A stretch of DNA of 64,000 nt from Macrostomum lignano (Eukaryota). Below the pieces are notes generated by a model that saw nothing but the letters and a program-made list of their open reading frames with translations, was not told the DNA's origin and did no database searches. A program made the position numbers and the translations under genes. Location: contig NIVC01002246.1 of the NCBI GenBank assembly GCA_002269645.1, positions 124,001 to 188,000 of the forward strand, in the 5' to 3' direction. Positions 5,247 through 51,020 of the stretch are shown one piece after another (position 1 is the first letter of the stretch; every line of letters begins with the position of its first letter).

Positions 5247-5920
5247 TAATATGTGAATTGTTTTGCTTATTCTGTGCAAATATTCAAAGTTCATGCGCTG
5301 ACCTCTCTTCTCTCTATTCATTTATCTTGGCTTGCCGTGAGCTTCCGGACAAAACTACTCTGGGTAGTAGAGATCAATTTTTGTGTTATTAACAATTAAT
5401 ACGCATTGCATGCAGGTATGTGGATACTTTTTACTCTTGCTTATTGCCGCACAGAGCATATTTAGCCTGTTATTGCGTACTGCAAGCACTTTGACATGCT
5501 AATGAAGTTTACATAAATAAAATTATGCATATAGATTTTTAATAAATCTTTGCTTTCGATATGTGCCTCTATGCTACTAAAAGTAATGCTGGCAAATATT
5601 TAGTAGTTAATCTTTCATATCAGATTTTATGCTATTGTGTCGGTTTGAGAAATAAAGGTTAACAAGTACAGCCATGCGCTGGGGGACACGGGTCTCCGAT
5701 GACAAACTTGTTAGTTGCTGATTTCATGCGGGACAGGGCAGTGCCACTGAACATAGGTGTCATTTGACAGCCACATAATGTTCACGTTCTTAGAAGGGGC
5801 CGTGGCCTCCACAACAATTGCGCTTCTCGGAAAGCAGAATGAAAAATAGGCAACCAAGCTCAATGAATTGCAGGACCTCAACGATTGCCACCTCCTGTTG
5901 GACGGGGCATCCACACGCTA

Positions 5921-6997
5921 GGAGACAGGGGCGCCCCACCAAGAGACAGGGGCGCCCACCAAGAGACAGGAGCGCCCACCAGGAGACAGGGGCGCCCACC
6001 AAGAGACAGGGGCGCCCACCAAGAGACAGGAGCGCCCACCAGGAGACAGGGGCGCCCACCAAGAGACAGGGGCGCCCACCAAGAGACAGGGGCGCCCACC
6101 AAGAGACAGGGGCGCCCACCAAGAGACAGGGGCGCCCACCAGGAGACAGGGGCGCCCACCAAGAGACAGGGGCGCCCACCAAGAGACAGGGGCGCCCACC
6201 AAGAGACAGGGGCGCCCACCAAGAGACAGGGGCACCCACCAAGAGACAGGGGCACCCACCAAGAGACAGGGGCGCCCCACCAAGAGACAGAAGCACCCAC
6301 CAAGAGACAGGGGCACCCACCAAAAGACAGGGGCGCCCACCAAGAGACAGGGGCGCCCACCAAGAGACAGGGGCGCCCACCAAGAGACAGGGGCACCCAC
6401 CAAGAGACAGGAGCGCCCCACCAAGAGACAGGGGCACCCACCAAGAGACAGGGGCACCCACCAAGAGACAGGGGCGCCCCACCAAGAGACAGAAGCACCC
6501 ACCAAGAGACAGGGGCACCCACCAAAAGACAGGGGCGCCCACCAAGAGACAGGGGGCGCCACTAAAGAGACAGCGCGGCGCCAACCAAGGGATAAAGACG
6601 CCCACCAAGAGACAGGGGCGCCCTCTAAGAGACAGGAGGCGCCTATCAAGAGACAGGGGCGTCCACCAAGAGACAGCTAGGGGCGCCCACCAAGAGATAG
6701 GGGCGCCCTCTAAGAGACAGGAGGCGCCTATCAAAAGACAGGGGCGCCCACCAAGAGACATGGGCGCCCTCTAAGAGACAGGAGGCGCCTATCAAGAGAC
6801 AGGGGCGTCCACCAAGAGACAGCTAGGGGCGCCCACCAAGAGACAGGGGCGCCTACCAAGAGATAGGGGCGCCCACCAACATCGGCGCCCTCTAAGAGAC
6901 AGGAGGCGCCTATCAAAAGACAGGGGCGCCTACCAAGAGACGGGGGCGCCCACCAAGAGACAGGGGGCGCCTACCAAGAGACAGGGGGCGCCCACAA
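5921..6997 (+). repeat. 20-nt minisatellite (CCACCAAGAGACAGGGGCGC)n, copy 1
   Basis: Tandem array; the same unit occurs at 20215-21110 and inverted at 34255-34712. Confidence 0.95.
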
Positions 6998-7116
6998 GTG
7001 TAACTTATTTTATTTTTTAGGACAAACACGAGTACATGTACGTCATTCTTCAATAGCATACGCTACTGTATTGTATCTGACTGGCAAGCCTAAAAATCTG
7101 GATTGAATCAATCAAT

Positions 7117-9112
7117 TGATGAGGACGCACTTTTTCCCAAATCCCGCGCTAGCACATGGGCTCTAAACTTACTTGCCTACTAACAGTGGGCAGTGGGCAT
7201 TTTTATCCTTTTTCTGCGAATTTTCATAGAATCTATACTAGATATAATGTCTGGTCATACTAGTAGTCATAATAACATAGGCGCAGCTTTTTGGGTCATA
7301 AATCATCGCTTTCGAAGCTGATCTGACAGCCACCTGCGCCTCACTCAGTGTTGAAGCGGGCGCCAGATGGTCTGAGAGGATGCGGGCGGTAGCTTTTTTC
7401 TCATCATTTTGACAGGCCATCAAGATTTATGAGGTCAGAGCCTATTGTTCGGATTCACTCAAGCGTGTGACAGCTTTGACAGCTATGCGTTTTACCCCTA
7501 AAAGTACCTTGGGATTAGCGATTAGCGATTTCTCTTCATTATCTTCACTTTCTATTTAATAAGAGCTTTCTAATGTATATTTTTTCATTAATTTCTGTCA
7601 ATCCTACGCGAAAAGTCATAAATCATTTTGTTGCGATTTTGAGTGATTTATGGCCGCACCTGTCATCTTTTTACGACCCTGTGGGAACTGATAGGATCTC
7701 TCGGTCACGTGATTCTGGGTAGCAACGAGCTTAGCCAATCAGAAAATTCGGCGCTCATTTTAACAAAACGGCTCAGCCAATCAGAATCGACGTGTTCCGT
7801 TATAACAAACTGCGGTCCAGTTGGCGGCTATTTAAACCGGAGTTTTTGGCCCGCTCGGACGCAACTTCTTCTTACTTTGGCTCGGGCCCAGCGCGCAACT
7901 TCTGGTTCCCGGAGCACGACCGTCGTTTCTTGATCCCCGGATTGCAACTTCCCCCATCATCATCAAGGACGAGTCCCCCGGTCGACAGCAGCGAACATCC
8001 AGTTAAGAGCATCACCTGCTAGCTAACAGCGAAGATTGTGACAGCATCATCCCGAGTCTACAGCTGCAGAGCATCGAGCCGATTCGGTCACTGTGGAATA
8101 CCTGGTCTCCGGCTGTTGAGTTTCTGATTGGTTGGGTGAGAGGCTACCTAGACTTGCTTGATTGGGTGATCCCTTTTCTGTCCCCTGTTGCAGTAGCTGA
8201 ATTAGGCGCACACTTTTGCTCATTTTGTTCAGTAGTGCTGTTGCTGAGGCAGGAATCATTCAATAATACTGCCAGTAGTCTAAGACTCCAATTCAATCTA
8301 AAGTGTGAAGTGAATTAAGGAGAAGGTTAAAAAAAACAGTTATCTTTGTCGGCTTTATTTCTTTGTTCGCCGATGGCTCAGATGAGTAGCTAAGCTAGTA
8401 GGCGCCGGTCACAGTGGACCAATGGCAAGGCAGTTCTCAGTCGACCAATCTAACAAATCAGTGAGCAAAACTGCCAAAAGTGCAGAATCGGCGCCAGAGA
8501 TGTACTTTGTGCACTCAGGGTAGCCAAGCGGCTCGGGTAAATGAATCATGCGGTCTCTGAAGTTCGAGTTAGCCTATCATCAGCGCTATGAGAGGCTAGT
8601 TGGCGCGTTGAAGGCTAAAAGTACATATCTTCGTATTTAGCAATGTAATAGTACATGTAGCTACCCCATAGACTCGCCACCGCAAGAATCCCCTGCACAA
8701 GTCCCCTCTGTACCTGCATGGCCAACGCGATCTAGTCCCAGCAGTGTCCCTTATCATCGGCTATGACTTCGAGATTGACAGCAAAAAGACACTAGTTGGC
8801 AGGTAAGTGCAAAGCCCCTTCTAGTCGGAAGCCCGATTTCGAGAGTCCCGGTGTGGTGAGCCAGGGCGCACGGGCTGGTGGCAGCAAGTTAGTTGATCTG
8901 CGGATTAGCTAATTTCTACTTTCAAAATTCTCCCTGCTCGTCTCTCGCTGTCCCTCTCTTAGCTATAGGACCTAGACTGCTCGCCACACGATCAAGCTAC
9001 CATGGGGCTGACCATCTGACAGGAGTGGGGGGCCAGGTCTCTAATTGATTTATTTCTGAGCCTGAGGCTCGAAGGCTTCCCTAACAAGGAGCCCGAAGGT
9101 CGAAACCCATCA
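7117..9112 (+). repeat. 5' LTR (1996 bp)
   Basis: Direct repeat of 15531-17527; identical small ORFs in the track at offset 8414. Confidence 0.97.
7705..7836 (+). promoter_or_regulatory. Putative LTR U3 promoter: E-box GTCACGTGAT, two AGCCAATCAG CCAAT boxes (7735, 7777), TATTTAAA (7829); repeated in the 3' LTR at +8414
   Basis: Motif order and spacing typical of NF-Y/TATA Pol II promoters; no transcript evidence. Confidence 0.5.
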
Positions 9113-9114
9113 AA

Positions 9115-9132
9115 TGGTGGCAGCGGTGGGAT
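9115..9132 (+). other. Primer-binding site TGGTGGCAGCGGTGGGAT, complementary to the 3' end of tRNA-Leu (AAG/TAG type)
   Basis: Starts 2 nt after the LTR end; reverse complement ATCCCACCGCTGCCA+CCA is the 3' end of metazoan tRNA-Leu(AAG/TAG). Confidence 0.85.
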
Positions 9133-11641
9133 ATGGTAAACACTAGCCGGTAAGAAGTGGTAAAGTGCTCACCGGTAGTGATAGCTGGTAAATGGCAAAT
9201 TGTGACAATAATAAAATCGAGTTGCGCCGTTTAGATTTCAAAATTGGGAATTTAGGTTTCTTATTAGATTACTGTAAGTAGTCAGTTGCGATAGCTTTTC
9301 AAGTCTGAGTTATGAGAGTCCAAAAATGCACAAAAAATTTATGCTACTGGAACCAAAAAAATTACTAGTATGAATTGCTTATCATTAAATGCATGCCTAT
9401 TCAAAAAAAAAATCTACCAAAAAAATTATAAAATTCAAAAAGCCAGAGTATATAAAAAAAAATCAACCCCGCACATATAACTCTCTCAGCTTGATCAGTT
9501 ATCTAGGCTCTCTGCTTAGTTCTCCAGTTTTGATTTCAGCCAGCTAATTATGCGGAAAATAGAGACTTAGGATAGTTCTTGTACTTTTGCTAAACAGAAA
9601 AGTTTCGAACTGATCACTCGAAATTAAGCTATTAATTTTTGTCGTGTAGACAAGAGGCCATTATCCGAATGATAATGCTTCCTCGGCCAAAACGTTCATT
9701 ATAGAATGCTGACAGCGCTCGTAGTTTTTGTCTTGTTTGCAAAATTTAGAATCAGGCAGCTTTTTGGATGTGCGAAGCCTTGGTTTCATACGCAGGGCCT
9801 CACGGGTTTTGGGTTCAAAGGTTATACTCTGGAGCAGATTAGTACGGGACAGTCGGATTAGCGTACTGTGTGATTATAGTATCATTTCGATTTAAATCGG
9901 GGTGTTCTATCTGAGTGCTTCTCCGAATTGTTGTCCGCTATTCGGGCTTTGGTGGTATAAATCGCCTTAAGTGGCAACGGAGAGCTCAAATTCCCACCGC
10001 AATTCTCGGTATTCCGGCTAACAATGGCAAGTGCTGTGCCGTTGGGCCTCTGGATGCGCTGGGTCAGACATCCATGTCCTGAAAAATATGTCTGGGGTTG
10101 ATGGCTACCGGAACGCGAGAACAGCCACGCTACTTTGGGTTTGGGTACAGAATTGTGAGGTCTGAAGTTACTTTAAGTTCGTACATTTACCATCTGCTTA
10201 GCCTAGGAGTCTGGGAAGTGTGTAGGTATTACTTTCAGTAGTACAGTTTGCCAGTGCACAAGTAATTTTTCCTGGTTGCGGAATTTAGGGTTTGGAAGTT
10301 TGCTTTTGCTCTTTTGGTTCTTTCTTAGAATCGGAGGGGTATCTAATGTAAATACAGTAAGGAAAGCGGAGAGAATTACCCACACGGTGCCATGGTAGTA
10401 TGTGCGAATTCCAGCTACCGCTCTGGTTAACGATTCTGCAGAGAGCAGAAAACGCCGTGGCTATTCATTTTTATGATAGCAAGAGGAGGGGAGCGCAGCT
10501 TTGTCTGGACAGACTCTACTGACTCAAGACACAGATGTCTTCTGTGGTTCGCCGCTATAAAAATACCCGACCCGATAACGTAGGGTCATAATATTTGACA
10601 AACTTTCCTGCTGCCCATAGCTTTTTCTATGATCAAAAGTCTTAGGGACCGTGCCATAAGGTTTTGTTGCGGAGTGAACACTACACTACGGACCTGCTTA
10701 ACTCCTTGTGTATTATCTGTCTGTTCGCGAGTATCGTATATTAGGTGTAATCCGCCCTCACCGGTCAATGCTGACGAAAGCTACACAGAGGGGCCACTGG
10801 GCGCGCTGGGTCAGACGTCCAAGTTCCGCTAAAAGATCAGCCTTGATGGGGATTGTGAATCTGTCTAGCCGTAGCAGCACCCGGACGGTTTCCTAGTGGC
10901 GATACCACGCAGGAGAGCTCTGATACACATGAGGTGCCCACATATTGGCGCCTGCAATTTAGACTAATGAGAGCTGATGAGACCCTCCATGATTAACTAG
11001 CCCATCAAAATTATTCGGAAGCAAAAAGAGCCGCTCAGAGAGAAAGAGAGACTGAGACTGTAGTAGCCTGCGGAAAGCTGTGGCCTTAGCCCAGTTGAGA
11101 ACCAGTGAGTTTAAAAGCAGCAATTCGAGAAAATCCGAGATCGGATTCAAGGCAGAGACAGAAGGATTTTTAGGTGTGAAAAAATTTGAGTCAAGTGTGA
11201 CTGCGGTGTGAGTGGAATAAGTGAAGTTTCCGCTTCGTTGGTTTTTGCATATTTTTCCATTTTTGTGCTGTGTTTGCGATCATTATCGCAAGCCCCGCGC
11301 TCGTATTGTACGCTTTTTGTATATAGATCGCGTATCTTTTGCTTATTTGCGTGTTTTATGCTTTTTGCTTATTTTTGCTTGTAATTTATTGTTTTAGCTT
11401 TGAGCTCCCCAACTCGCGGTGCTCAACCCCCCATTGCTTACTTGTGTCAAAACCCTACCCCAGTTAGGCTTTTTGCACAATCTCCCCCCTTCCCCCCCCA
11501 TTCGATTCGATTCATTGCCATTGTCTTGCTTTGAAGCAGACACCCAATTTCGGCTAGTAGCCAATTGCATTCATTTTTTCCGCCCCGGTTCAGATTTTCA
11601 TCCTTTAGTTCTGTCCCGGCAACTGGTGTTGTGCCCGAACT

Positions 11642-13000
11642 ATGGAAACATGTAATTCCAGTACCAGTAAGTCAGGAGGTAGAGGCAGAAGAGGTAGAGG
11701 GAATAGGAACGGATCAGCAGCCGCCGCTGCAGCCGCCTGCGATTTTTCGTCCCAGGGCTCAGGCTCCCCCGAGAGATCAGAGTGCGGATCATCACCGCAG
11801 AGAGCCCCACCTCAACCCCAAGCCGCCGACATGGCAGCCCAATTAGCGCAAGCCCTTGCAGCTATTGGATTGGGCAGAGAGACACAGAGTGTCAAGATTA
11901 GCGTTGAGAAATTCAACCCAGCAGAATCCTGCTTCCCACAGTGGGTTGACAGAGTCAAATACAAACTCAGATCTGAAGAGATTAGGGACAGAGAGCAGAA
12001 GAAGAGCACAGTAATCTCGCTCCTCCCCCCAGATCTGCAGAGTCTTGCTATTGCCCTCCATCCCGGCCTTGACTTCGAAGAATTCATAGAAAGGTTAGGT
12101 CGCCAGGTAGGAGAGGCCAGTTCAGAATTAGCGAAGAGGAACAAAGTCCGGAATTTGAAACAGAAAGCAGGCCAGAATCACCACGCCTACTCGGCCATGG
12201 TGTGTAGTGTGATAGCTTCTGCTTACCCCGACATGAGTCCTAGACAGTTAGAGTCGGAGGTGATCTTCGCCTACTTGGAAACGGCTGATATTGCCCCAGA
12301 TGTGCGCAAGTCGCTGCTAGGGCAACAGTTTCGCAGCATTGATGAAGTGCTGGCAGCACAGCAGAATCTCCAAGAGGCAGATGAGATTTCCCGGCGCTTA
12401 GCGCGAGACCAGCCCAGGTATGATCAGCGTAGGGACGATAGAAACAGAGATCAGAATCGCCCCAGCGACAGAGAATATCAACGCAGGTGGGTCCGCATGC
12501 TAGAGTCGGAGGAAGGAAGGGAAGTAGAAGAGGCATTGACAGATTTACAGCAGCGCCAAAACAGCCTTGATGAAACCGTCGGCAAGATTTACGGCGCTAT
12601 GAGCCAGGTTGCGGAGAGGATTGATCAGGCCATGATGAGCCACTCAGATCATTGGGAGGGAGACCTCACCGTGGTAGAAGATACTGAGCGAGCTAGCCAA
12701 CCGCCTGAGGGCAAGTCCCCGCCCCCCTCATCTCAAAATCTGTCAGAGAAGCCCGCGCTACAGAGGCAGAATGCGATTTATGGTGACCCGGCCAAGCAGA
12801 TTGAAAAAACTGAGATTTACCGGCCCCCGCAGTTGCGCAACAGTGCACGCGCGCGCCCGCCTCCCCTGCGTGTTCCTACCCAGGGAGAGAGCAGAGTAGG
12901 AGAAGAAAGCTGGAGCCCCCCGCCAACCCCGGCGCCTGGAGCGCAGAGACAGCGGCCCTCTTTCTATCTTCCGTCTGGGCCAGCCGGTTCGGAAAACTGA
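11642..13000 (+). CDS. gag: Retrotransposon Gag-like capsid protein (452 aa), no CCHC zinc knuckle
   Basis: Intact ORF with good start context (AACTATGG); capsid-like core (KFNPAESCFPQWVDRV...RNLKQKAGQNHHAY); lies between PBS and protease. Confidence 0.8.
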   Translation: METCNSSTSKSGGRGRRGRGNRNGSAAAAAAACDFSSQGSGSPERSECGSSPQRAPPQPQAADMAAQLAQALAAIGLGRETQSVKISVEKFNPAESCFPQWVDRVKYKLRSEEIRDREQKKSTVISLLPPDLQSLAIALHPGLDFEEFIERLGRQVGEASSELAKRNKVRNLKQKAGQNHHAYSAMVCSVIASAYPDMSPRQLESEVIFAYLETADIAPDVRKSLLGQQFRSIDEVLAAQQNLQEADEISRRLARDQPRYDQRRDDRNRDQNRPSDREYQRRWVRMLESEEGREVEEALTDLQQRQNSLDETVGKIYGAMSQVAERIDQAMMSHSDHWEGDLTVVEDTERASQPPEGKSPPPSSQNLSEKPALQRQNAIYGDPAKQIEKTEIYRPPQLRNSARARPPPLRVPTQGESRVGEESWSPPPTPAPGAQRQRPSFYLPSGPAGSEN

Positions 13001-13008
13001 GAGTAGGG

Positions 13009-13503
13009 ATGGGTGGCGCCCACACTCACCCCTCTTCTGGACTTTTAAGGGCAAATTTAGTAAACTGTGGCAAAAGGAAAATGAATCTTGTACCCGATTT
13101 CATTGTCCCTAGGAAGTCTGTAACATTTAGAAGCTCTCGAGCTGATGTTTATGTAAAAGTTCAAGTAGAGAGATTGCCAGTCCGAATCTTAATCGATTCT
13201 GGGTCGGCAGTTTCCATCTTACCCTTCAAAGACTTCGTGGCGGCCACTAACGATGATATGGACAGGTTGGAGGCCCCTACAGTTTCTATCTATTCCTATA
13301 GCGGGCATAGACTGGAGATTGTGGGTCAATCTAAGCTGACAGTCATCTTAGGCAGTGAGACCATGCCTGTCATGTTCCTGATTGCCAGTGACCCCGGCAC
13401 GAGGCCTCTGTTGGGCAACTCTTTCCTCGCAGCAGCACCTGCTGTGTTGGATTACCACACTAGAAATCTATTAGTATTGGGGCAAATGCTCCCATTTTGT
13501 TGA
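13009..13503 (+). CDS. Retropepsin-like aspartic protease; frame open from 12787, -1 relative to gag
   Basis: Catalytic motif ILIDSGSAVSIL, flap-like YSYSG, C-terminal PLLGNSFL; clean stop after QMLPFC. Confidence 0.88.
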   Translation: MGGAHTHPSSGLLRANLVNCGKRKMNLVPDFIVPRKSVTFRSSRADVYVKVQVERLPVRILIDSGSAVSILPFKDFVAATNDDMDRLEAPTVSIYSYSGHRLEIVGQSKLTVILGSETMPVMFLIASDPGTRPLLGNSFLAAAPAVLDYHTRNLLVLGQMLPFC

Positions 13504-15514
13504 CTTCCTTGAGAACTCTGAAGGTCGGGGGCCCGATTCGCTTTTCCCCTTGCTTATCCTCTGCTAGATCCGGTTTATTTCGTAAAAGTATTATAACAGG
13601 TTGGACGTATAGAGGGAATAGATGAAATCAGTTAATTAGGGAGAATTCTACGTAATCTTTCGATTAAGTCGTTCGGCTCAAGTGATTAGTTAGCGAACAG
13701 TACCTATATTTATATGTTCAACTTTTAACCAAGTTTTTGTCATGCCGGAGCAAAATTCGAACTCCCTATTTTTCTTTTTTTTGTGCTGCCATGCCCCTTG
13801 TAAATATATCCTCTTATTGCGTGAACTATTGCTTTCTCATACTGTCTTTTGTACCCCCCGATTCCCCTGTGAATATCCCCCGGTGCTTTAAAAATGCGTT
13901 TTTTTTCTACCAGTATATTTATACTCAATGTTGTGCCATTATTTATCTCCGCGTATTTCTCTCTCTGTTGTGTCATTGCTTATTTTGTCGTGCCTAATTT
14001 CTTCTTTGCTCATTTTTTCTTTGTAAAAAGTTCGTCAAATGGTGGCGGAAACAATATGTTGTGTGCGTGAATGTGACTGCTTGCTTATTGTGCTTAATTT
14101 GTCGTGAGTGCTTTCGAAATTAAATGTGAAACTGAACCTTGGTTTGAGTTAAGTTTGAAACTGAAATTTAGGACTTCTCGTGTTACTAAACTCACTGAGC
14201 CAAGGCGAAGAAAGGGATCAATGATGAGCGAATTAGGTAATTAATATAGAAGAATACTAGGCATAATTAAACTAATAAAAGTCTTAAATAAGGTACGAAT
14301 GGTCCACCTGAATTAATACGAAATTCTAATTGTACTCGAAAACTTAACTCGCGGCCGTGCGATACTACTGACATGTAGTAATACTGAGTGTAAAGCAAAA
14401 TAGGATTGTGTGAATTAAATTTGAAAGTGAATGCGATTGAAGCGGAGTCTTGAGGACAAAAATCTTTGAAAGGACTTTTAAAATTTAACAATAGTGCTCA
14501 AAATTGTTCTGCCTCTTATCTGAAACTCTATTAATAATACATCTTAAAGTACCTATCTGCACAGCACTGAATGGGCAAGTGAGTAGGAGGGAGTGTACCC
14601 TGAAGGCTGCTGAGACTGTGGGATGGGTCTGGGATTATCCGATTGAGTAGAGTGTATGGTAGAGTATCACAGAGCTGAGATGAGACTTACCAGTTGAAGA
14701 TCGGAGGTCTGCAGTGGCTGGCCTGGCTCGGTGCAAAACCGGCAAAGGTGGCAGTGGCGAAGCGCTGGCTGGCAAATCGGAGGCTGACGCAGGATTTGAA
14801 GATGAAAATCATAATTTGTGGATGACCTGAGTGGTCAGTCGCTTTTATCTCCCTGTGAACTCGAGGTGGTTGAGATCATCCTCCCCCAGCAGCGTCTCAG
14901 CCAGTCAGCAAAGATGACTCGAGGGTCCCTTAATCCTCTGAGGGTCGCCATTCGTCGGCTGCCGCCAGATGAGCACGGCAACCCCAGGCACGTGGACTCC
15001 ACAGGCGGGAGGGGAGAATGTGCAACGCATTTCCCAAGCTCCTCGCCCATCCTGGCTCGGGTCGGCCGCGCGGCGAAGGAATTAAGCCATCAAGAGGCTT
15101 AACAGGTAGAATCGAGACTGACTCGAACGCGAACAATGAAGCTTAGTCTCATTGAACATGCGCTGTTTATTCCATCTCGCACATTTTGAATTATACCTTC
15201 TCGCGCGGCAATAATTTATCTGTCTATTATCCCCTTACGTGTATCTCGCACTTGATACTGTATTTGCAATGCAATATTTAGTTGAAGCACCTTTCTCTTG
15301 ATCCCTCTCTTTCTTCAATCCTTCCCTTTCCCCAATTTCTTTCTCTTTTGGGATTTCCATTCTTGGGATGCGTATTAGTCTAATATTTTTAGTACCTATT
15401 TGTGAGTAACTATTTTTATTTTTTACTACTCTGTTCGATGCGCTAGCTGCGATTTTGTACAAAACTGCGCTCATTTTTCTTCTTTGTTTTTGAGTTAATC
15501 TGCGATCAACTCAC

Positions 15515-15526
15515 AAATAGGGGGGG
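15515..15526 (+). other. Polypurine tract (AAATAGGGGGGG) upstream of the 3' LTR
   Basis: Purine run ending 4 nt before TGATG at 15531. Confidence 0.7.
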
Positions 15527-15530
15527 CATA

Positions 15531-17527
15531 TGATGAGGACGCACTTTTTCCCAAATCCCGCGCTAGCACATGGGCTCTAAACTTACTTGCCTACTAACAG
15601 TGGGCAGTGGGCATTTTTATCCTTTTTCTGCGAATTTTCATAGAATCTATACTAGATATAATGTCTGGTCATACTAGTAGTCATAATAACATAGGCGCAG
15701 CTTTTTGGGTCATAAATCATCGCTTTCGAAGCTGATCTGACAGCCACCTGCGCCTCACTCAGTGTTGAAGCGGGCGCCAGATGGTCTGAGAGGATGCGGG
15801 CGGTAGCTTTTTTCTCATCATTTTGACAGGCCATCAAGATTTATGAGGTCAGAGCCTATTGTTCGGATTCACTCAAGCGTGTGACAGCTTTGACAGCTAT
15901 GCGTTTTACCCCTAAAAGTACCTTGGGATTAGCGATTAGCGATTTCTCTTCATTATCTTCACTTTCTATTTAATAAGAGCTTTCTAATGTATATTTTTTC
16001 ATTAATTTCTGTCAATCCTACGCGAAAAGTCATAAATCATTTTGTTGCGATTTTGAGTGATTTATGGCCGCACCTGTCATCTTTTTACGACCCTGTGGGA
16101 ACTGATAGGATCTCTCGGTCACGTGATTCTGGGTAGCAACGAGCTTAGCCAATCAGAAAATTCGGCGCTCATTTTAACAAAACGGCTCAGCCAATCAGAA
16201 TCGACGTGTTCCGTTATAACAAACTGCGGTCCAGTTGGCGGCTATTTAAACCGGAGTTTTTGGCCCGCTCGGACGCAACTTCTTCTTACTTTGGCTCGGG
16301 CCCAGCGCGCAACTTCTGGTTCCCGGAGCACGACCGTCGTTTCTTGATCCCCGGATTGCAACTTCCCCCATCATCATCAAGGACGAGTCCCCCGGTCGAC
16401 AGCAGCGAACATCCAGTTAAGAGCATCACCTGCTAGCTAACAGCGAAGATTGTGACAGCATCATCCCGAGTCTACAGCTGCAGAGCATCGAGCCGATTCG
16501 GTCACTGTGGAATACCTGGTCTCCGGCTGTTGAGTTTCTGATTGGTTGGGTGAGAGGCTACCTAGACTTGCTTGATTGGGTGATCCCTTTTCTGTCCCCT
16601 GTTGCAGTAGCTGAATTAGGCGCACACTTTTGCTCATTTTGTTCAGTAGTGCTGTTGCTGAGGCAGGAATCATTCAATAATACTGCCAGTAGTCTAAGAC
16701 TCCAATTCAATCTAAAGTGTGAAGTGAATTAAGGAGAAGGTTAAATCTAACAGTTATCTTTGTCGGCTTTATTTCTTTGTTCGCCGATGGCTCAGATGAG
16801 TAGCTAAGCTAGTAGGCGCCGGTCACAGTGGACCAATGGCAAGGCAGTTCTCAGTCGACCAATCTAACAAATCAGTGAGCAAAACTGCCAAAAGTGCAGA
16901 ATCGGCGCCAGAGATGTACTTTGTGCACTCAAGGGTAGCCAAGCGGCTCGGGTAAATGAATCATGCGGTCTCTGAAGTTCGAGTTAGCCTATCATCAGCG
17001 CTATGAGAGGCTAGTTGGCGCGTTGAAGGCTAAAAGTACATATCTTCGTATTTAGCAATGTAATAGTACATGTAGCTACCCCATAGACTCGCCACCGCAA
17101 GAATCCCCTGCACAAGTCCCCTCTGTACCTGCATGGCCAACGCGATCTAGTCCCAGCAGTGTCCCTTATCATCGGCTATGACTTCGAGATTGACAGCAAA
17201 AAGACACTAGTTGGCAGGTAAGTGCAAAGCCCCTTCTAGTCGGAAGCCCGATTTCGAGAGTCCCGGTGTGGTGAGCCAGGGCGCACGGGCTGGTGGCAGC
17301 AAGTTAGTTGATCTGCGGATTAGCTAATTTCTACTTTCAAAATTCTCCCTGCTCGTCTCTCGCTGTCCCTCTCTTAGCTATAGGACCTAGACTGCTCGCC
17401 ACACGATCAAGCTACCATGGGGCTGACCATCTGACAGGAGTGGGGGGCCAGGTCTCTAATTGATTTATTTCTGAGCCTGAGGCTCGAAGGCTTCCCTAAC
17501 AAGGAGCCCGAAGGTCGAAACCCATCA
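15531..17527 (+). repeat. 3' LTR (1997 bp)
   Basis: The only differences I found from the 5' LTR are AAA vs TCT (8332-8334 vs 16746-16748) and one extra A near 16931. Confidence 0.97.
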
Positions 17528-17595
17528 CAATCAATCAACGATAAAAACAACTAAATCAAAATTGCGCGTTTGGTTTAAATTTCATGAAAATCTAG

Positions 17596-20069: not shown

Positions 20070-21172
20070 CAGCGGCGTACGCAGGGAGGGGCCCAAGGGG
20101 TCGCGGCCCACCACCCCAACCGCCGCCATAAAAATTTCGCTCCTTCATAAAATTTATGAACGAGGCAACCCAGCTCTACGAATGACAGGAGCTCAACTTT
20201 TGCTACTTTTTGGACGTGGCAGACAGGGACAGAGCCGCCTGCCAGGAGACAGGGGCACCCACCGAGAGACAGGGGCGCCCACTAAGAGACAGGGGGCGCC
20301 CACCAAGAGACAGGGGCGCCCACCAAGAGACAGGGGCACCCATCAAAAGACAGGGGCACCCACCAAGAGACAGGGGCGCCCACCAAGAGACAGGGGCACC
20401 CACCAAGAGACAGGGGCGCCCACCAAGAGACAGGGGCGCCCACCAAGAGACAGGGGCACCCACCAAGAGACAGGGGCGCCCACCAAGAGACAGGGGCACC
20501 CACCGAGAGACAGGGGCGCCCACTAAGAGACAGGGGGCGCCCACCAAGAGACAGGGGCGCCCACCAAGAGACAGGGGCACCCACCAAGAGACAGGGGCGC
20601 CCACCAAGAGACAGGGGCGCCCACCAAGAGACAGGGCGCCCACCAAGAGACAGGGGCGCCCACCAAGAGACAGGGGCGCCCACCAAGAGACAGGGGGCGC
20701 CTACCAAGAGACAGGGGCGCCCACCAAGAGACAGGGGCGCCCACCAAGAGACAGGGGCGCCCACCAAGAGACAGGGGCGCCCACCAAGAGACAGGGGCGC
20801 CCACCAAGAGACAGGGGCGCCCACCAAGAGACAGGGGCGCCTTCCAAGTTACAGGGGCGCCCACCAAGAGACAGGGGCGCCTTCCAAGTTACAGGGGCGC
20901 CCACCAAGTTACAGGGGCACCAACCAAGAGACAGGGGCGCCCACCAAGAGACAGGGGCGCCTACCAAGTTACAGGGGCGCCCACCAAGAGACAGGGGCGC
21001 CCACCAAGAGACAGGGGCGCCTACCAAGAGACAGGGGCGCCCACCAAGAGACAGAGGCGCCCACCAAGAGACAGGGGCGCCTACCAAGTTTCAGGGGCAC
21101 CCACAAAGAGACCAAATATTGGCGCCATTTGGGGTTGCGACCCCTCCAATAAAATTACTGCGTACGACACTG
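20070..21172. mobile_element. MITE-like non-autonomous DNA transposon (hAT-like) carrying the 20-nt minisatellite
   Basis: TIRs CAGCGGCGTACGCAGG and (reverse complement) CAGTGTCGTACGCAGT, 13/16 identical; subterminal AGGGGTCGC at both ends; flanks AATCGTCC and CATCGTCT (6/8, degenerate 8-bp TSD). Confidence 0.65.
20215..21110 (+). repeat. 20-nt minisatellite (CCACCAAGAGACAGGGGCGC)n, copy 2
   Basis: Tandem array inside the TIR element. Confidence 0.95.
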
Positions 21173-25290: not shown

Positions 25291-25331
25291 GTATAATTGA
25301 TGGATAAGATTGAACCCAATGCATTTCGCAG

Positions 25332-25931
25332 AAGCCGGCAGTGCAAAAAGCTATTAACATGCTCCCACCGAAAGAAGACTCTGCAGCAGCAGCAGCAGAC
25401 TCAGTCAGCCAGAAGCTCCGCGAACAGCAGCGCTGGCTCATCGAAAGCATCAAAGAGGGCGCCATTAACGCCTTCGCCAAGATAGTCGAACATCGACTGC
25501 ACCCGTCGGCGTCGGCGCCACCCGAACCGGCGGCCAACTCGGAGCCCGAGAGCGCGGCGCAGCTGGCCCAGCGCCTGGAGCTGATGACGCGGCAGCACGC
25601 AGTTGAGACAGCCGAACTGCAGATGCTGCACCAGCTGCAGCTGGCGGAGCTCCGGCACAACCACACGGTGGCGTTGTGCGAGCACCGAGCCGCCCTGGAC
25701 CTGGAGAAGCAGGCAGCCCTGGCCGAGGCGCTCCGCTTCCAGGAGTCTGAGATGGCGCGCCAGATCGAGGCTGTGAAATCGCGTCAATGGTGCGCCACCT
25801 GCGACAGGGAGGCGTTCTTCTACTGCTGCTGGAACACCTCCTACTGCGATGCCGCCTGCCAGCAGAGACACTGGCCGGCGCACATGGCGACCTGCGCTCA
25901 GCGGGGCTCTCAGGTTGCTGGGCGGCGATGA
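25332..25931 (+). CDS. ZMYND8: ZMYND8/PRKCBP1 (RACK7)-like coiled-coil + MYND zinc finger, last exon
   Basis: [37 protein letters not shown] matches ZMYND8 MYND ([37 protein letters not shown]), preceded by ELRHN...EKQ coiled coil; acceptor TTTCGCAG at 25331. Confidence 0.85.
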   Translation, partial: [199 protein letters not shown]

Positions 25932-29123: not shown

Positions 29124-29143
29124 CTTATATATTTCTATATAAG
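29124..29143. promoter_or_regulatory. Inverted TATA pair CTTATATA-TTTC-TATATAAG upstream of the Rac-like gene
   Basis: 8-bp inverted repeat containing TATATAAG, about 350 nt upstream of the ATG. Confidence 0.3.
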
Positions 29144-29490
29144 CAGCGAAATTTAGCATGTTAGATAGAGATAAGAAATCAAACATGCAGAGAGGCAGTT
29201 TTTGTTGTTTGAAAAACCCAATCTTCACACACTCCCTATGCATGCTCGGTCACTCATCCTGTTTCCGGTTTACAATTGGAGGCGAAACTGTCTGCTTTGC
29301 CAGAAAGCGCGCACAAACGAATCTCGATGAACTGAATGTGCACCCAGCGGTTAGCGCGAGTTTCACCAGCAAGAGAGAGAGAATTTGCAGTTGCGTAGTA
29401 TTAAATCATTCAACACCTTGTGTTCAAATTAGCTATCAACATAATTACCTAATACCCGTAGTAATCCTTGTCTCCGCAAATTCGTTTCCA

Positions 29491-30084
29491 ATGCAGGCGG
29501 TGAAATGTGTTGTCGTTGGCGATGGGGACGTTGGCAAGACTTGCCTGCTCATGTCCTACTCAGAGAACGCCTTCCCGGCCGAGTACACGCCCACAGTGTT
29601 TGACAACTACTCCACCAACATCGTGATTGACAGCAAGCCTGTCTGTCTCGGCCTCTGGGACACGGCCGGACAAGAGGACTATGACCGGCTCAGACCGCTG
29701 AGCTACCCCAAGACAGACATCTTCCTGATCTGCTTCTCCCTGGTGAACCCACACAGCCGGGACAATGTCCTGGCCAAGTGGTACCCAGAACTACAGCACC
29801 ACTGTGGCAATGCACCCATCATTCTGGTTGGAACCAAGAGCGACTTGAGAACTGATCCGGACAAGCTCAAGGAGCTCGAACGGTTCGGTCAGAAACCCGT
29901 GAGCACAGAGGAGGGCCGTCGATTGGCTCACGAGATCCGCGCCGAGGCCTACATGGAGTGCTCTGCCAAGCTGAACATGGGACTCAAAGAGCTCTTTGAA
30001 GAGGCCGTGATGTGCGTGCTCAAGATGAGAAAGAAGAGAAGTCAGCCGAGGCGGCGGTTCAGTGGATTCTGTTCGGTTTTGTGA
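29491..30084 (+). CDS. Rac: Rac-like Rho-family small GTPase, 197 aa, intronless
   Basis: [50 protein letters not shown], Rho insert, polybasic tail and CAAX CSVL. Confidence 0.93.
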
Positions 30085-33255: not shown

Positions 33256-34254
33256 AAAAGCTTTTATAAACGCTCAGCACTCAGCAGTGGAGAGCACAGT
33301 TTCAAAGCGCTGGACAGAGGGACGCTCACAGAAAAGCAGCAAAAACGTTTTTGAAAAATAGCTGAACACAACGGCATGGATGGAGACTTGTGGTGCTTTG
33401 CCCTGCCCTTGTCTACCGCACTGGCAAGGGCGGCCCTCCCGGGGGCTGCTGGCTCGATCTCCCCCCCCCCCCCCAGAAACCGATCCCTTTAAACTTCGAC
33501 CCTGAACCCCTTCGGCAATTATCTGGTGGAAGTCCCTAAGGATACTGGTAGCAACTGAAAGCACTGATTTGTACTCTTCAGGTAAGACCTCCGCTCAGAC
33601 CTGTCTCTCAGGTGTCCTGCTGATTTGTACAATACTATAAAATCAGAGCTGTACACCCCGGTGAATATTGAACGATTCTGCAACAGAATCGCCAGACAGA
33701 CACAGCTGGCCCCAGGAACTTTTCCACCGATCTGATATTTCCAGGGATTCCTGCAGTCCGCCTAACGGATCCGCCAATTCCATTAAGGAAGTTCGACGCA
33801 AAAATAAAACTTTTTTTTCAAAGCTGGTTACTAAGGGAAAAGCGTCTATTTTTACGATGAACTTTCCCTCACTCGGATCCATCAGCCGCACTAGTGAACT
33901 GGACATTGGCCTGTCTGGCGCAGAGTTGGCGGTGATAGAGCTTCTCCTGAATGCTTTTTCTGGGCCGGTCTGCCCATTCTGTCCACAATAAGTCCGTATC
34001 TGGCCGCCGTGGCAATATTGAAAAATGCAGCCTCCTGCAAAGTGAAAAAGCAGGTACTGAAAGGTAACACTGCCGTTCGATGGAAAACTTTTCTGACAGC
34101 TCAAATGTTGCATTCAGTTTTCTTAAACCTTCCAGTGTGTAAATAAAAATGGTTGGTTTCCGATTGGAAATTTGTTGAAGACTGCACTGGAGGCTTAAAA
34201 AGCCAAAGTACTGCGTGTTCTTTAATAAGAGGAGGCCGCATTCCACCTTTTGAG

Positions 34255-34712
34255 TGTCTTGGTGGGCGCCCTTGTCTCTTGGTGGGCGCCCCTGTCTCTT
34301 GGTGGGCGCCCCTGTCTCTTGGTGGGCGCCCCTGTCTCTTGGTGGGTGCCCCTGTCTCTTGGTGGGCACCCCTGTCTCTTGGTGGACGCCCCCAGTCTCT
34401 AGGTGGGCGCCCCTTTCTCTTGGTGGGCGCCCCCAGTCTCTAGGTGGGCGCCCCTGTTCTTGGTGGGCACCCCTGTCTCTTGGTGGGCGCCCCTGTCTCT
34501 TGGTGGGCGCCCCTGTCTCTTGGTGGGCGCCCCTGTCTCTTGGTGGGCGCCCCTGTCTCTTGGTGGGCGCCCCCAGTCTCTAGGTGGGCGCCCCTGTCTC
34601 TTGGTGGGCGCCCCCAGTCTCTAGGTGGGCGCCCCTTTCTGTTGGGTGGCGCCCTCTGTCTCTTGGAAGGCGCCCCTGTCTCTTGGTGGGTGTCCCTCTC
34701 TTGGTAGGCGCC
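34255..34712 (-). repeat. 20-nt minisatellite (CCACCAAGAGACAGGGGCGC)n, copy 3, inverted
   Basis: Reverse complement of the unit in copies 1 and 2. Confidence 0.95.
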
Positions 34713-35170
34713 TCTGCCTCTGTCAGGCCTTAATGCTTCAGGCGCTGCTGATTTTTCATTTGTTCAACAGGACATGACCTGGAATATTTGATGAAAGCCA
34801 CCATTCTGCCGTAGTTTTCAATAACCTACTGAGTCTCCAGTCTGTCAGTCAGTTAACCCTGCCAACAGGGCATGCCACATCTGACCCCTGTTGCCTGATG
34901 CCTGCCCTCTACCAAGAGTTTCTGGCTATAAACACATGAAATGCTCCTGGGTAGAAGGGGTGGGGTTGGAGGCACAGGTACACTTGTCATCGCGGTGCTT
35001 GCGTTGACGGCCGTGACACTCCGTCAGTGAGGCAAATGTCTGTCGTCCTTTGGTAATTTGAACTTCTAGCCTTTAGAGCCACTGACGTTCACTAAGAGAC
35101 CCGCTGCTGTCTTCTGGGAGCAAAGTTTGTTGCCTGCTGTTACCGACTTAGTTAGCGGCGTAGATTTTTT

Positions 35171-45530: not shown

Positions 45531-45915
45531 ATGACAACGGATGGCGGCCGCTTTGACTTCGAGGACGGCGGCACCTACGTGGGCGGCTGGAGCGAGGGCA
45601 AGGCGCACGGGCTGGGCCTGGTGACGGGGCCCCGTGGCCAAGGCGAGTTCGCCGGCCTCTGGGAGGACGGCTTCGAGGCCTCCGGGGTGTACATCTGGCC
45701 AAGCGGCAACACTTTCGAAGGCGAATGGCGTCAGGGCAAGCGGCACGGCCTCGGGACCGAGGTCAAGGGCCGGTGGATGTACCGCGGCGAGTGGATGACC
45801 GGCTTCAAGGGGCGCTACGGGGTGCGGCAGAGCGAGGCCAGCGGGGCGCGGTACGAGGGCACCTGGCAACTCGGCATGCAGGATGGAACCGGGGTTGAGA
45901 CCTACTCTGATGGCA
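45531..45915 (+). CDS. JPH: Junctophilin first coding exon (N-terminal MORN repeats)
   Basis: [20 protein letters not shown]...[11 protein letters not shown]...ETYSDG closely matches the junctophilin N-terminus; donor GTGAGT at 45916 (phase 1); upstream acceptor CCTTCAG at 45494. Confidence 0.95.
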
Positions 45916-46009
45916 GTGAGTGGCTGCGGGTGGCTTGGTCAACTAGGGTTTTGCAATTACGGGTCTCTGTTTCAGGTGCGCTAACCGCGTCTATTGTTGC
46001 TAAAATATT

Positions 46010-46314
46010 GTGTCCCAATCCCTACTTTGTGTGTGTCCTAATCCCTACTCTGGGTGTGACCTAATGCCTACTCTGTGTGTGTCCTAATCCCTACTTTGTG
46101 TGTGTCCTAATGCCTACTCTGTGTGTGTCCTAATGCCTACTCTGTGTGTGTCCTAATGCCTACTCTGTGTGTGTCCTAATCCCTACTCTGTGTGTGTCCT
46201 AATGCCTACTCTGTGTGTGTCCTAATGTCTACTCTGTGTGTGTCCTAATGTCTACTCTGTGTCCTAATGCCTACCCTGTGTGTGTCCTAATGCCTACTCT
46301 GTGTGTGTCCTAAT
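46010..46314. repeat. 23-nt intronic minisatellite (CCTAATGCCTACTCTGTGTGTGT)n
   Basis: Tandem array. Confidence 0.93.
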
Positions 46315-46890
46315 CATTACTTTTGCGAATTCAAACTGCTTTTAGACTAGGATTTGCAACATACGCTGGTATGTATCGAGTGAAAATCCCTTCGAATGCG
46401 TGACATCCGGTGTAACTCAGCTCCACAGTGTAGGCGTTCTGTCACAGCTCCTGTCAGTCACTGTCAATCCGTGACAGTCAGTGCAACTGCACCCAACCCT
46501 GGCACGCATGCCGTTATCAAATTTCGCCCGATTCGTGTCGGGCCGTCTCCCAGACGTGGAGCATCTGGCTTATCTTATTGCTTCACTGGCCAGAATAAAA
46601 ATGCCATAGGAGGGAAAAAGGCGGACTAGGCGTGGCGCTCGATCACTTGTGATTTCCTCCGCATCGATTCTGCCCCAGTACTGCTCGGCTTGTATATCAG
46701 TCACGAGCGTTTTTTTCTGTTTGTAAAAATGTCCTCACTGGCTCTGCTTATCAGCAGCTGCAGTCGTGCTATTTTGGCGTTCGCTCGCTTGAAAATCATC
46801 GAAGCTAAAAGCTATATAAAACCAACCACTTTGCCATTATTTTTTATGTTTCTACTACATAATTGTCGCAAGTACAAGCCATAATGACAT

Positions 46891-47779
46891 CACGCCTTGT
46901 GAATGTACATTCATCGAAGGAGCTTTTCTTTCCTGCCCTTACTCCTTAAAACACCCACCTCACGCCTTGTGAATGTACATTCATCGAAGGAGCTTTCCTT
47001 TCCTGCCCTTATTCCTTAAAACACCCACCTCACGCCTTGTGAATGTACATTCATCGAAGGAGCTTTCCTTTCCTGCCCTTACTCCTTAGAACACATACCT
47101 CACGCCTTGTGAATGTACATTTATCGAAGGAGCTTTCCTTTCCTGCCTTTACTCCTTAGAACACCCACCTCACGCCTTGTGAATGTACATTTATCGAAGG
47201 ATCTTTCCTTTCCTGCCCTTATTCCTTAAAACACCCACCTCACGCCTTGTGAATGTACATTCATCGAAGGAGCTTTCCTTTCCTGCCCTTACTCCTTAGA
47301 ACACATACCTCACGCCTTGTGAATGTACATTTATCGAAGGAGCTTTCCTTTCCTGCCTTTACTCCTTAGAACACATACCTCACGCCTTGCGAATGTATAT
47401 TTATCGAAGGAGCTTTCCTTTCCTGCCTTTACTCCTTAGAACACCCACCTCACGCCTTGTGAATGTACATTCATCGAAGGAGCTTTCCTTTCCTGCCCTT
47501 ACTCCTTAGAACACATACCTCACGCCTTGTGAATGTACATTTATCGAAGGAGCTTTCCTTTCCTGCCTTTACTCCTTAGAACACCCACCTCACGCCTTGT
47601 GAATGTACATTCATCGAAGGATCTTTCCTTTCCTGCCCTTACTTCTTAAAACCCCCACCTCACGCCTTGTGAATGTACATTCATTGAAGGAGCTTTTCTT
47701 TCCTGCCCTTACTCCCTAAAACACCCACCTCACGCCTTGTGAATGTACATTCATCGAAGGATCTTTCCTTTCCTGCCCT
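46891..47779. repeat. 70-nt tandem repeat, about 13 units, each with the palindrome TGAATGTACATTCA or a 1-nt variant
   Basis: CACGCCTTG recurs every 70 nt from 46891 to 47731. Confidence 0.95.
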
Positions 47780-48311
47780 GCCCTTATCAGATATATCTTT
47801 CGTTTCTGCTTGACCTAAATGACAGGCAATCGAGCAACGATTCTCGCCCAGAGTTGCTAAAGATTCCTGCAGCCATCAGAAAGAGGAAAAATCATTTAAG
47901 TATTCAGTTTAACCCTCGGTCTTGAGAGTTCCAATTTCCTTCCTCTCAGGTTGCCTGGCCAGTCTTATTATGGGCCAGGGACTCCAGTCCAGAGGGACAA
48001 GGGTGAGAGCACAGGATGCCTTTCTGGTGGCCGAGGACAGACAGCGGATTGAGTTGAGGACGACTCAATTTCATCTCAACTCCTTCCCGAAGCTCTGAGG
48101 AGTGATGCGATTTTCCTAGGGAACAAGAAAAGGGATGGAAAGTTGGGATTCTCTTCTATACCCGTGTCTCCGGGCAGACAGAAATTAAGTTTCAGGTTGC
48201 AGACCTCTGATTGAAAGATTCAAATAAGGAGCGCTCATGCTAGCACTGCCTCTATGCACAGTTCAGCAATCCGATCTGAACTGCCCAATAATATTTGCTT
48301 GCAGCCTCATG

Positions 48312-48750
48312 AAGTATCACTCCTGACACACAAAGTATCACTCCTGACAACCAAAGTATCACTCCTGACACACAAAGTATCACTCCTGACAACCAAAGTA
48401 TCACTCCTGACACACAAAGTATCACTCCCGACACACAAAGTATCACTCCTGACGCACAAAGTATCACTCCTGACAACCAAAGCATCACCCCTGACACACT
48501 AAGTATCACTCCTGACACACAAAGTATCACTCCCGACACACAAAGTATCACTCCTGACAACCAAAGTATCACTCCTGACACACAAAGTATCACCCCTGAC
48601 GCACAAAGTATCACTCCTGACACACAAAGTATCACTCCTGACACACAAAGTATCACTCCTGACAGACAAGGTATCACTCCTGACACACAAAGTATCACTC
48701 CTGACACACAAAGTATCACTCCTGACGCACAAAGTATCACTCCTGACACC
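48312..48750. repeat. 21-nt minisatellite (AAGTATCACTCCTGACACACA)n
   Basis: Tandem array. Confidence 0.93.
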
Positions 48751-49359
48751 GCCACTGACGCCACTGGCCCGAACTGACAGCCATGACATCTTTGCAGTAC
48801 AAGTACAACTGTCCCAACACGTGACCTACATAAACCAGGTGAAATTGATGCTTTTCCACTCGCAGACTCGGCCCCCACGGCCTCTCCCACACGAAGTGCG
48901 CAGATAATCAGTTTTCAATCAAGCAGACAGGCTGGCCAAATATTGCTTAACAAGCCTCAGTCAATTGATTTGATTATGAATAGATTACCATGGCAACACA
49001 GCAAGCATTCATGAAGCCTCCCCGCTGGGAAGAGCCCGAACTATTCTAAAAACCGCACGTAGGCTTGTGGAGCGTATCCTCGGAAATGGCATTAACTAAC
49101 GGGCTGGGCTGCCCGCACTTCAATCGGAGGGTTAATTTAATTGCCGGACTCACAGTCGGAGAATACTGAGCGATCACTGCACTCAATCGAGACATTTTTT
49201 TTTATAGATTTCCTGTCCGAAATGCGGGTCTCTTAGCCCAAGTTTTAGTTTTATGACATTAATTTTGCGGCGAATAATGTTCTCTTGTACAGCACTCAGA
49301 GAAAATTACTTTTATCCTTTTTAGGGTAGAATAAGTAGGAGATAGATAGAAAGATATAG

Positions 49360-50008
<649 letters not shown>

Positions 50009-50569
50009 CGAGTAGATAGCAGGCAGGAGGCAGCATTTATTGCTTTTCCTTTTTCCCCTGGGCCTGCTCGGCAGCAGGGCTGTGCACTTTGCGGCTTAAA
50101 GCAGGCTACAACCTCCCCTCGTCGTCTGCCCATCCGGTTCGGTCATTCATTTCCCCCCTTCGAACAGTCAGTCTCCGGCGGGGGGATATTTTTCCCCGGC
50201 TAAAGGGGCAGTTTTTCTCACGGAAAAACGCAGACTTTCCCCGACAGGCCCGCTCTGCCCTCTGCCCGGGCGAACTGCTTGGGGGAGAGGGAGAGGATGC
50301 GGAACGGGGATCTTCAGACTTAGGCAGTCGCGCCACTGCAGCAATGAGGGTTCAAGTCAGTCCAGTAAATTCTTCAGGTTCAGTTCCTCCTTCTACAACT
50401 GCAGAAGTGAAGGCTGGGTGGTGGAGCCTGGCGGGGTCCGGCTGAGTGAAATTCCAGAACCAGCAGCTCTGACGAATAAGAAAGAAAAATCAGGAAAGTT
50501 GAAAGTAGGAGCTTTTAAATCATTGAACTTATTATTCTTTGCTTTTACGCCGGTGACTGATGGCGCTCC

Positions 50570-51020
50570 CCCAAAAAATGGCGTCTCCACAGAATGGCAC
50601 CACAAAGACAAAAAAGACACTCACAAAAACAGCAGTCTCACAAAAAGGACACTTTTACCAAAATGCCACTCTCACAAAAATTGCACTCTCAAAAAATGGC
50701 ACTCTCACAGAAATTGCACTCTCAAAAAATGGCACTCTAACAAAAATGGCACTCTCACAAAAATGGTACTCTCACAAAAATGGCGCTCTCACAAAAATGG
50801 CACTCTCACAAAAATGGCACTCTCAAAAAATGGCACTCTCACAGAAATGGCACTCTCACAAAAAGGGCCCTTTTACCAAAATGGCACTCCCTCAGAAATG
50901 GCACTCTAACAAAAATGCCACTCACAAAAATGGCTCTCTCAGAAAATGACACTTTTTAAAAAATGGCACCTTTACAAAATAACACCTTCACAAAAAATGG
51001 CGCTCCACAAAAATGGCGTA
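50570..51020. repeat. Degenerate ~17-nt minisatellite (AAAAATGGCACTCTCAC)n
   Basis: Tandem array. Confidence 0.85.

Follow-up and report, generated by a model that had tools for sequence, protein, structure and literature searches.

In wheat, the long terminal repeat (LTR) retrotransposons RLG_Sabrina_SA (8.1-8.3 kb) and RLG_WHAM encode Gag and protease (PR), and no reverse transcriptase (RT) or integrase (IN) (PMC9744471). Recently mobile families that carry Gag only have been described in animals, namely BHIKHARI (Bik-1/Bik-2) of zebrafish and ENS-1 of chicken (PMC12067270). Here we describe an LTR element of 10,411 bp, at positions 7117-17527 of a 64,000-nucleotide stretch of the flatworm Macrostomum lignano (contig NIVC01002246.1, positions 124,001 to 188,000 of the forward strand; this whole stretch is referred to as the window). 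Its TG...CA ends, primer binding site (PBS), polypurine tract (PPT), Gag with a probable capsid fold and retropepsin point to a retrotransposon of the Ty3/Mdg4 (Gypsy) type, while the pol required for autonomy was not found. The LTRs are nearly identical, the PBS is perfect, Gag and PR are intact, and nothing else is coding. On these grounds we favour, with a probability of roughly 0.65, the reading that the element represents a semi-autonomous Gag-PR lineage mobilised by a helper. That such a strategy works is seen from the wheat families, which are multi-copy with the same coding set, and from the zebrafish Gag-only families, which are helper-dependent. An initial annotation of this DNA had spoken of an active non-autonomous family; a non-autonomous Gag-PR element is indeed the most likely reading, whereas 'active family' was said of one copy.

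Under the favoured reading, the LTR promoter would give rise to the genomic RNA. Most ribosomes would make Gag of 452 aa from it, and a minority would slip by -1 at G_GAA_AAC to make a Gag-protease fusion of 620 aa. The element would supply the capsid and a dosed maturation protease, and the particles would package its own RNA. RT and IN would come from a co-expressed autonomous element with the same signals, i.e., the tRNA-Leu primer, the PPT and the TG...CA ends. The lineage would exist in more than one copy.

LTRs, ends and primer binding site

When the LTR pair was aligned over 1997 columns, four positions differed, corresponding to two events: AAA versus TCT at 8332-8334, and an extra A at 16931. 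As both differences touch homopolymer runs, where assembly errors are possible, the true divergence may be zero. The insertion of this copy is very recent. The 2-kb LTRs with about four differences, the inverted termini, the PBS and the PPT of the initial annotation were all borne out (Table 1), and the PBS is identical with the first 18 nt of a published probe for the tRNA-Leu(AAG) 3' end (PMC6103689). Its intact 4-bp target site duplication (TSD) stood in part. CAAT is present on both sides, but in the surrounding microsatellite lengths of 0, 4 and 8 bp look alike; only 5 and 6 bp are excluded by the flanks.

It may be noted that an exact 12-nt copy of the LTR-end/PBS junction (9110-9121) lies at 14035-14046, inside the 3' non-coding region, and runs on as a degenerate primer site. 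A captured LTR-leader segment may have left it behind as a scar. A transgene has been reported to have landed in a '2-kb long LTR retrotransposon' on scaf3369 (PMC5730564), which by its size could be a solo LTR of the present family.

The PBS 18-mer was also seen at 109 loci in a scan of prokaryotic genome contigs. At many loci in the prokaryotic bins it stands 0-2 nt after CA, in the manner of an LTR element, and these are concentrated in a few marine bins. ARAGORN called a tRNA at 2 of the 60 loci scanned, both being 3' ends of cyanobacterial tRNA-Met. Junctions of an LTR end with the tRNA-Leu primer site are numerous in bins L001, L014, L019, L022, L024, L026, L030, L031, L037, L038 and others, a sequence pattern suggesting that these bins contain animal DNA that carries LTR retrotransposons.

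Gag, protease and the absence of pol

The initial annotation had reported an uninterrupted gag and a DSG protease ending at a clean stop, and both were found as described. The protease lies in the -1 frame relative to gag (open 12814-13500, stop 13501-13503). It matched gag-asp_proteas of Pfam (E 6e-4) and ASPRV1 (E 2e-10), the latter alignment reaching residue 144 of 145. A structure model built on a 57-row alignment had a pLDDT of 91.6 and placed the last strand at residues 140-143 of 145. The model resembled Ddi1 (E 7.5e-9) and retroviral proteases (112 matches at E <=0.001). All 57 rows have the catalytic D and the two conserved glycines. The evidence that this is a retropepsin is strong. 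Since the last strand ends at residue 143 and the ASPRV1 alignment reaches 144, the protease stop coincides with the structural end of the domain, leaving no linker toward an RT. In contrast, those protease matches in which an RT-start motif was found have a linker of 67-220 aa.

Gag consists of an RG-rich N-terminus, an Arc/Ty3/PNMA-like capsid region (about aa 87-245), a basic-acidic stretch and a Pro-rich tail. No CCHC knuckle is present in its 452 aa; basic stretches in the N-terminus and at residues 250-290 may bind RNA in its place. A sequence search of the PDB gave no match. Of 7999 candidates of 248-791 aa picked by word matching, none proved homologous, longer forms lying outside that search; the match to Pfam PNMA was at E 0.028. 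In a language-model atlas, residues 60-270 grouped with Retrotrans_gag clusters at 0.93, with 129 of 256 features in common, which is moderate evidence. A single-sequence structure model (pLDDT 64) was then compared with known structures. Foldseek ranked the Arc, Ty3 and PNMA2 capsids on top, none at E below 0.05. In a wide structure search (VIA), Arc CA came first (Z 8.7, rmsd 4.5, 69 aligned residues), and the Copia, Ty3, PNMA2 and PEG10 capsids were within the top 18. Together these comparisons support, with moderate confidence, a retroelement capsid fold for the modelled Gag.

The remainder of the internal region was scanned as a leader (9113-11641, 2529 nt) and a 3' region (13504-15530, 2027 nt). 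The longest stop-free stretches were 106 and 103 aa, respectively, at the level of dinucleotide shuffles (medians 107 and 102), in agreement with the earlier statement that no other internal open reading frame (ORF) exceeds 110 aa. Codon-position asymmetry reached 16.8 in the PR core and 11-22 in four of the five 300-nt segments that start in gag, compared to 4.5 in the gag/PR overlap and 1.4-10 elsewhere; the leader and the 3' region are without a coding-like asymmetry. For Pfam searches, 145 stop-free segments were taken: all 68 of at least 20 aa from the 3' region, and 77 of at least 22 aa among the 90 of the leader. RT, RNase H, integrase or env was matched by none of the 145; four unrelated matches fell below their cut-offs. 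A tblastn search with the 77 protein matches of the protease (see below) gave nothing at E below 0.02 outside the protease. A custom profile of ten post-protease pol tails scored at most -3.0 bits on the internal frames. On shuffles it stayed at or below -1.2 bits, whereas the LTR reached 1.2 and a pol held out as control reached 86.7. Of about 15 held-out pieces of 30 aa, it gave at least 9 bits for 3, and very short remnants could therefore go undetected. The absence of a recognisable RT, RNase H, IN or env stated at the outset is thus confirmed, the check for degenerate RT or IN being negative by both Pfam and the custom profile.

A few observations were made in these non-coding parts. General RNA structure showed no enrichment (9 of 139 folding segments at z <=-2, mean z -0.07). 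A ribozyme or structured RNA, as in the retrozyme idea, was rejected, the sole Rfam match in 10.9 kb being a chance snoRNA at E 0.92. The leader holds a pair of short repeats (Table 1), whose three substitutions in the stem all preserve pairing (9 of 9 pairs kept, with one double change). With n=2 this is not significant, as 241 of 500 shuffles scored as high and the folding z-scores were also not significant; the repeats are possible packaging or dimerisation hairpins. Although the 3' region is AT-rich, a patch of it at 14600-15200 is GC-rich (52-55%), and near 14690 there is an antisense splice donor. An antisense or accessory ORF in this patch was considered and rejected, there being no Pfam match and no codon asymmetry.

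Relatives of the protease were sought among 1.84 billion representatives, and 77 proteins matched. One of them, P0123, stood out with 43% identity (E 3e-24); the next-best match, P0124, is a pol-type polyprotein with 30% identity (E 1.7e-11). P0123 has 146 aa and a DGG active site, and ends three residues beyond the stop of the element's protease. In a quick tree it was the sister row of the element (SH-aLRT 97). No closer protease, RT-fused or not, was found among the representatives, and a profile search at near length added nothing beyond P0123. The tree left 40 of its 73 inner branches open, and there is no RT by which the clade could be placed. Among published rows (PMC3286476), a Leu PBS with a 4-bp TSD is listed for Culex Mdg3 and 2.1-kb LTRs for Osvaldo, but the PBS of the latter is Lys; most Mag rows have 5-bp TSDs. 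For M. lignano itself, two Mdg3/micropia families are catalogued, with a mean of 41.5 copies (PMC12801592).

These results bear on whether the missing pol is a property of the lineage or of this copy. The parent could be an autonomous, unannotated family with 2-kb LTRs, from which RT-RNase H-IN was lost privately, either by template switch while reverse transcription was under way or by deletion shortly after insertion. Only a single copy was seen, and any very young copy is expected to have intact ORFs. With some 3 kb of pol added, the element would measure 13-14 kb, and a published Osvaldo-type element measures 11.9 kb and has LTRs of 2137 bp (PMC3286476). The 12-mer at 14035 might mark a recombined segment that replaced pol. 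However, such a loss requires breakpoints that kept the protease complete, left not one linker residue behind and took out every trace of pol; neither a related RT-fused protease (in the 1.84 billion representatives) nor a Gag homologue of 248-791 aa was found. Should the parent express pol from yet another frame, the clean stop of the protease may be original, but no canonical second slippery site is seen by inspection at the protease end. We consider such a one-off loss, the main alternative to the favoured reading, unlikely; if true, the locus merely marks an unannotated long-LTR family.

The loss of pol from a normal element through a collapsed or chimeric join in the assembly is very improbable. 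The genome, with its many repeats, is difficult to assemble (PMC5730564), and both LTR differences resemble homopolymer-type errors. Against this, there is no N in the window and no indel in the gag and PR ORFs, and the structural boundary where the protease stops is one that it has in common with P0123.

Table 1. Positions of the element's features and of host genes in the window.
Feature	Position	Strand	Remarks
Apparent TSD, left copy	7113-7116	+	CAAT, inside (AATC)n microsatellite
5' LTR	7117-9112	+	1996 bp, TGATG...CATCA, 99.8% identical to 3' LTR
Likely LTR promoter	7735-7835	+	CCAAT at 7735 and 7777, TATA-like TATTTAA at 7829 (motif scan)
Candidate splice donor	8800-8808	+	CAG/GTAAGT, U5 part of LTR
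PBS	9115-9132	+	18/18 complementary to tRNA-Leu(AAG) 3' end; 2-nt gap after 5' LTR
Non-coding leader	9133-11641	+	2.5 kb
Internal repeat, copy 1	10044-10079	+	34-36 nt, foldable as 9-bp hairpin; self-BLAST E 0.001
Internal repeat, copy 2	10791-10826	+	85% identical to copy 1, 747 nt apart
Two pyrimidine-rich splice acceptors	11575-11608	+	AG ending 11593 and 11608
gag	11642-13000	+	452 aa, uninterrupted
Candidate -1 frameshift signal	12991-13040	+	G_GAA_AAC on last two gag codons, TGA stop, then hairpin
Retropepsin	12997-13503	+	-1 frame; DSG at 13195-13203
Non-coding 3' region	13504-15518	+	2.0 kb; expected place of RT-RNase H-IN
PPT	15519-15526	+	8 purines, short; 4 nt upstream of 3' LTR
3' LTR	15531-17527	+	1997 bp
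Apparent TSD, right copy	17528-17531	+	CAAT, matches left copy
ZMYND8/11-type coiled-coil plus MYND exon	25314-25931	+	host gene
Ras-family ORF, single, long	29143-30084	+	host gene
Junctophilin exons	45532-53042	+	host gene

Expression signals and the case for a helper

Two points are absent from the initial annotation: the protease is in the -1 frame and is preceded by a slippery site, and Gag has no CCHC knuckle. G_GAA_AAC is the best of two slippery-like heptamers in the gag/PR overlap, and four occur in the whole gag frame. The hairpin after the gag stop was calculated at about -16 to -18 kcal/mol. A slip at this heptamer is predicted to produce the 620-aa fusion. AAAC directly upstream of the gag stop is also found in the published consensus of a CsRN1 family of M. 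lignano (supplement of PMC12801592).

In the LTR, the CCAAT and TATA-like motifs suggest a transcription start near 7860, which would leave 44 ATGs ahead of gag. The motif scan found no canonical three-unit heat-shock element, as present in other M. lignano families. The candidate donor in U5 agrees with GT[G/A]AG, the donor motif of M. lignano (PMC8629364); upstream of it, 11 ATGs would remain. Three pyrimidine-rich acceptors occur in the leader. The two listed in Table 1 precede the gag ATG by 34 and 49 nt, and no other ATG intervenes. With the U5 donor and these late acceptors, a spliced gag message is plausible, and would bypass the 44 upstream ATGs. About 30% of M. lignano genes undergo spliced-leader (SL) trans-splicing (PMC8629364), and the top trans-splice motif of this species was matched by neither acceptor. 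A perfect TATAAAA box was also noted in the leader (10556-10562), about 1.1 kb upstream of gag and with eight ATGs downstream; going by this motif, it is a possible internal promoter.

Several points weigh against a helper-mobilised lineage. The element was seen as a single copy, no second copy being present within the window. The TSD is ambiguous, because CAAT sits in a microsatellite with a 4-bp unit. The stability of the frameshift hairpin is not significant: in one comparison 34 of 300 shuffles equalled it (z -1.4), in another 14 of 200 (z -1.7). As Gag is without a CCHC knuckle, packaging of the element's own RNA can only be put conditionally. The end shared with P0123, the protein that gives the sole and indirect sign of further members, is only suggestive: 9 of the 77 protease matches end within six residues of the same point, a chance of about 1 in 8, while 38 continue for more than 50 residues. 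P0123 itself comes from a single Logan contig of 1426 nt and could be cut short. No helper was found: the PBS motif was absent from a supplement file with the sequences of 6 of the 137 M. lignano families published (PMC12801592), a file in which alignment rows are truncated and a motif may be concealed by a line break. The four published families whose 5' ends could be compared have other LTR ends, a different PBS and LTRs of another length, 250-402 bp (PMC12801592).

Helper mobilisation being retained as the favoured reading, a more specific form of it may be put forward tentatively. In this form, an old and hitherto unreported flatworm lineage, to which P0123 with its 43% identity would also belong, stops after the frameshift-dosed protease. 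A gag message, spliced or trans-spliced, would provide the capsids that the lineage builds and matures for itself, and RT and IN would be hijacked from a distantly related family. We regard this as doubtful in all its parts together. If true, the element would be a still-transposing counterpart of PEG10-type genes, a living intermediate between a retrotransposon and a domesticated capsid gene.

The window is packed with micro- and minisatellites. The element is flanked by two copies of a 20-bp minisatellite unit, at 5922-6995 and 20242-21112. As an array, this minisatellite has three dispersed copies (5848-6995, 20163-21112 and, inverted, 34254-34724), two of which have about 75 nt of unique 5' flank in common; the arrays are probably a minisatellite-carrying mobile element. 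Among the host genes, an exon at 52143-53042 is 100% identical to M. lignano junctophilin in UniRef, which assigns the window to this free-living species or to one whose genome is virtually the same. No host gene was detected next to the insertion, none of the 29 flanking segments scanned (61 listed) having a Pfam match.

Comparison with known systems

We found no report in the literature of a mobile animal family with Gag, a frameshift and PR, or of the present family. Repbase, Dfam and GyDB lay outside the search; since such a family would be filed in these repeat databases, its absence from print is not established. The 2025 catalogue of M. lignano elements was RT-seeded (PMC12801592), and the genome paper used LTRharvest with a minimum TSD of 5 bp and dropped unclassified elements (PMC5730564). 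Elements such as the present one would be missed on either account. If a family exists, it points to an annotation blind spot in a genome that is 21% LTR retrotransposon, and it extends the semi-autonomous Gag-Pro strategy of plants to an animal. The keeping of the protease under frameshift control after the loss of pol would then imply that particle maturation, beyond capsid supply, is worth carrying. M. lignano is open to transgenesis, RNAi and stem-cell work, so that the choice of helper and the origin of PEG10- or Arc-like genes could be tested in it.

The initial annotation took TR-GAG and LARD as analogues, which are not the closest ones; the element fits neither definition. TR-GAG elements are under 4 kb, of Copia type, with 5-bp TSDs, and were selected for lacking protease (PMC4350172). 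This class is ruled out for an element of 10.4 kb that encodes a protease and in which a 5-bp TSD is excluded. LARDs, which are large and have no protein-coding ORFs, are ruled out by the two intact ORFs. As non-autonomous LTR elements, TR-GAG1 and ta-TRIM have the tRNA-Leu primer in common with the present one (PMC4350172, PMC4558846). ta-TRIM was described in cestodes, which are flatworms too, and in E. multilocularis its TSDs are mostly of 4 bp, but it is a miniature element (PMC4558846).

PEG10 has lost its LTRs and is fixed as a gene, and a domesticated gene of this type is ruled out here by the intact LTRs, PBS and PPT. Like the element, mammalian PEG10 has a Ty3/Gypsy-derived gag, a programmed frameshift and a DSG protease that can process Gag; unlike it, PEG10 has a CCHC knuckle and a longer pol-like part (PMC10076021). 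This likeness raises the question whether the Gag-PR cassette is kept for a host role while copies move, either as RNA-carrying capsids between cells or for restriction of a related element, after the manner of PEG10 or Bik-1. The arrangement of gag, -1 frameshift and DSG protease with no working RT mirrors PEG10 (PMC10076021), the mobile Gag-only Bik-1/2 are needed for zebrafish development (PMC12067270), and the best match of the capsid model is Arc. However, the full LTRs, PBS, PPT and near-zero divergence speak for selfish mobility, and helper-dependent spread alone explains the retention of the ORFs. A host role is hence improbable.

Among Gag-only elements, Bik-1/2 are like the present one in having an intact Gag, no pol, recent insertion and a similar size (full-length cut-offs of 8,750 and 9,350 bp) (PMC12067270). 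They are relatives of lokiretroviruses with Gag only (PMC12067270), whereas the element has retained a protease together with a candidate frameshift site, and its capsid looks Ty3/Arc-like; the encoded protease does not fit a BHIKHARI-type element. RLG_Quinta of einkorn also keeps Gag, and has its PBS and LTR ends in common with RLG_Cereba, the partner that supplies RT and IN (PMC11302176). Unlike the element, this centromeric plant family has a domain of unknown function beside Gag and no protease (PMC11302176).

The coding set of the Sabrina_SA/WHAM type, an intact Gag and protease with no RT or IN, is found in the element. These semi-autonomous Gypsy families, with RLG_Wilma as partner, are likewise large and helper-dependent (PMC9744471), a helper being presumed in our case. 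They differ in being plant elements with one GAG-Pro ORF, thousands of copies and a known partner (PMC9744471), while the present element is from an animal and has its PR behind a candidate -1 frameshift. The division of labour that the initial annotation considered unusual in an animal was therefore overstated as a novelty, given the Gag-Pro families of wheat (PMC9744471) and the Gag-only Bik-1/2 and ENS-1 of animals (PMC12067270). The Gag-Pro strategy is already known, and an animal version with a frameshift-placed PR is a variant of it.

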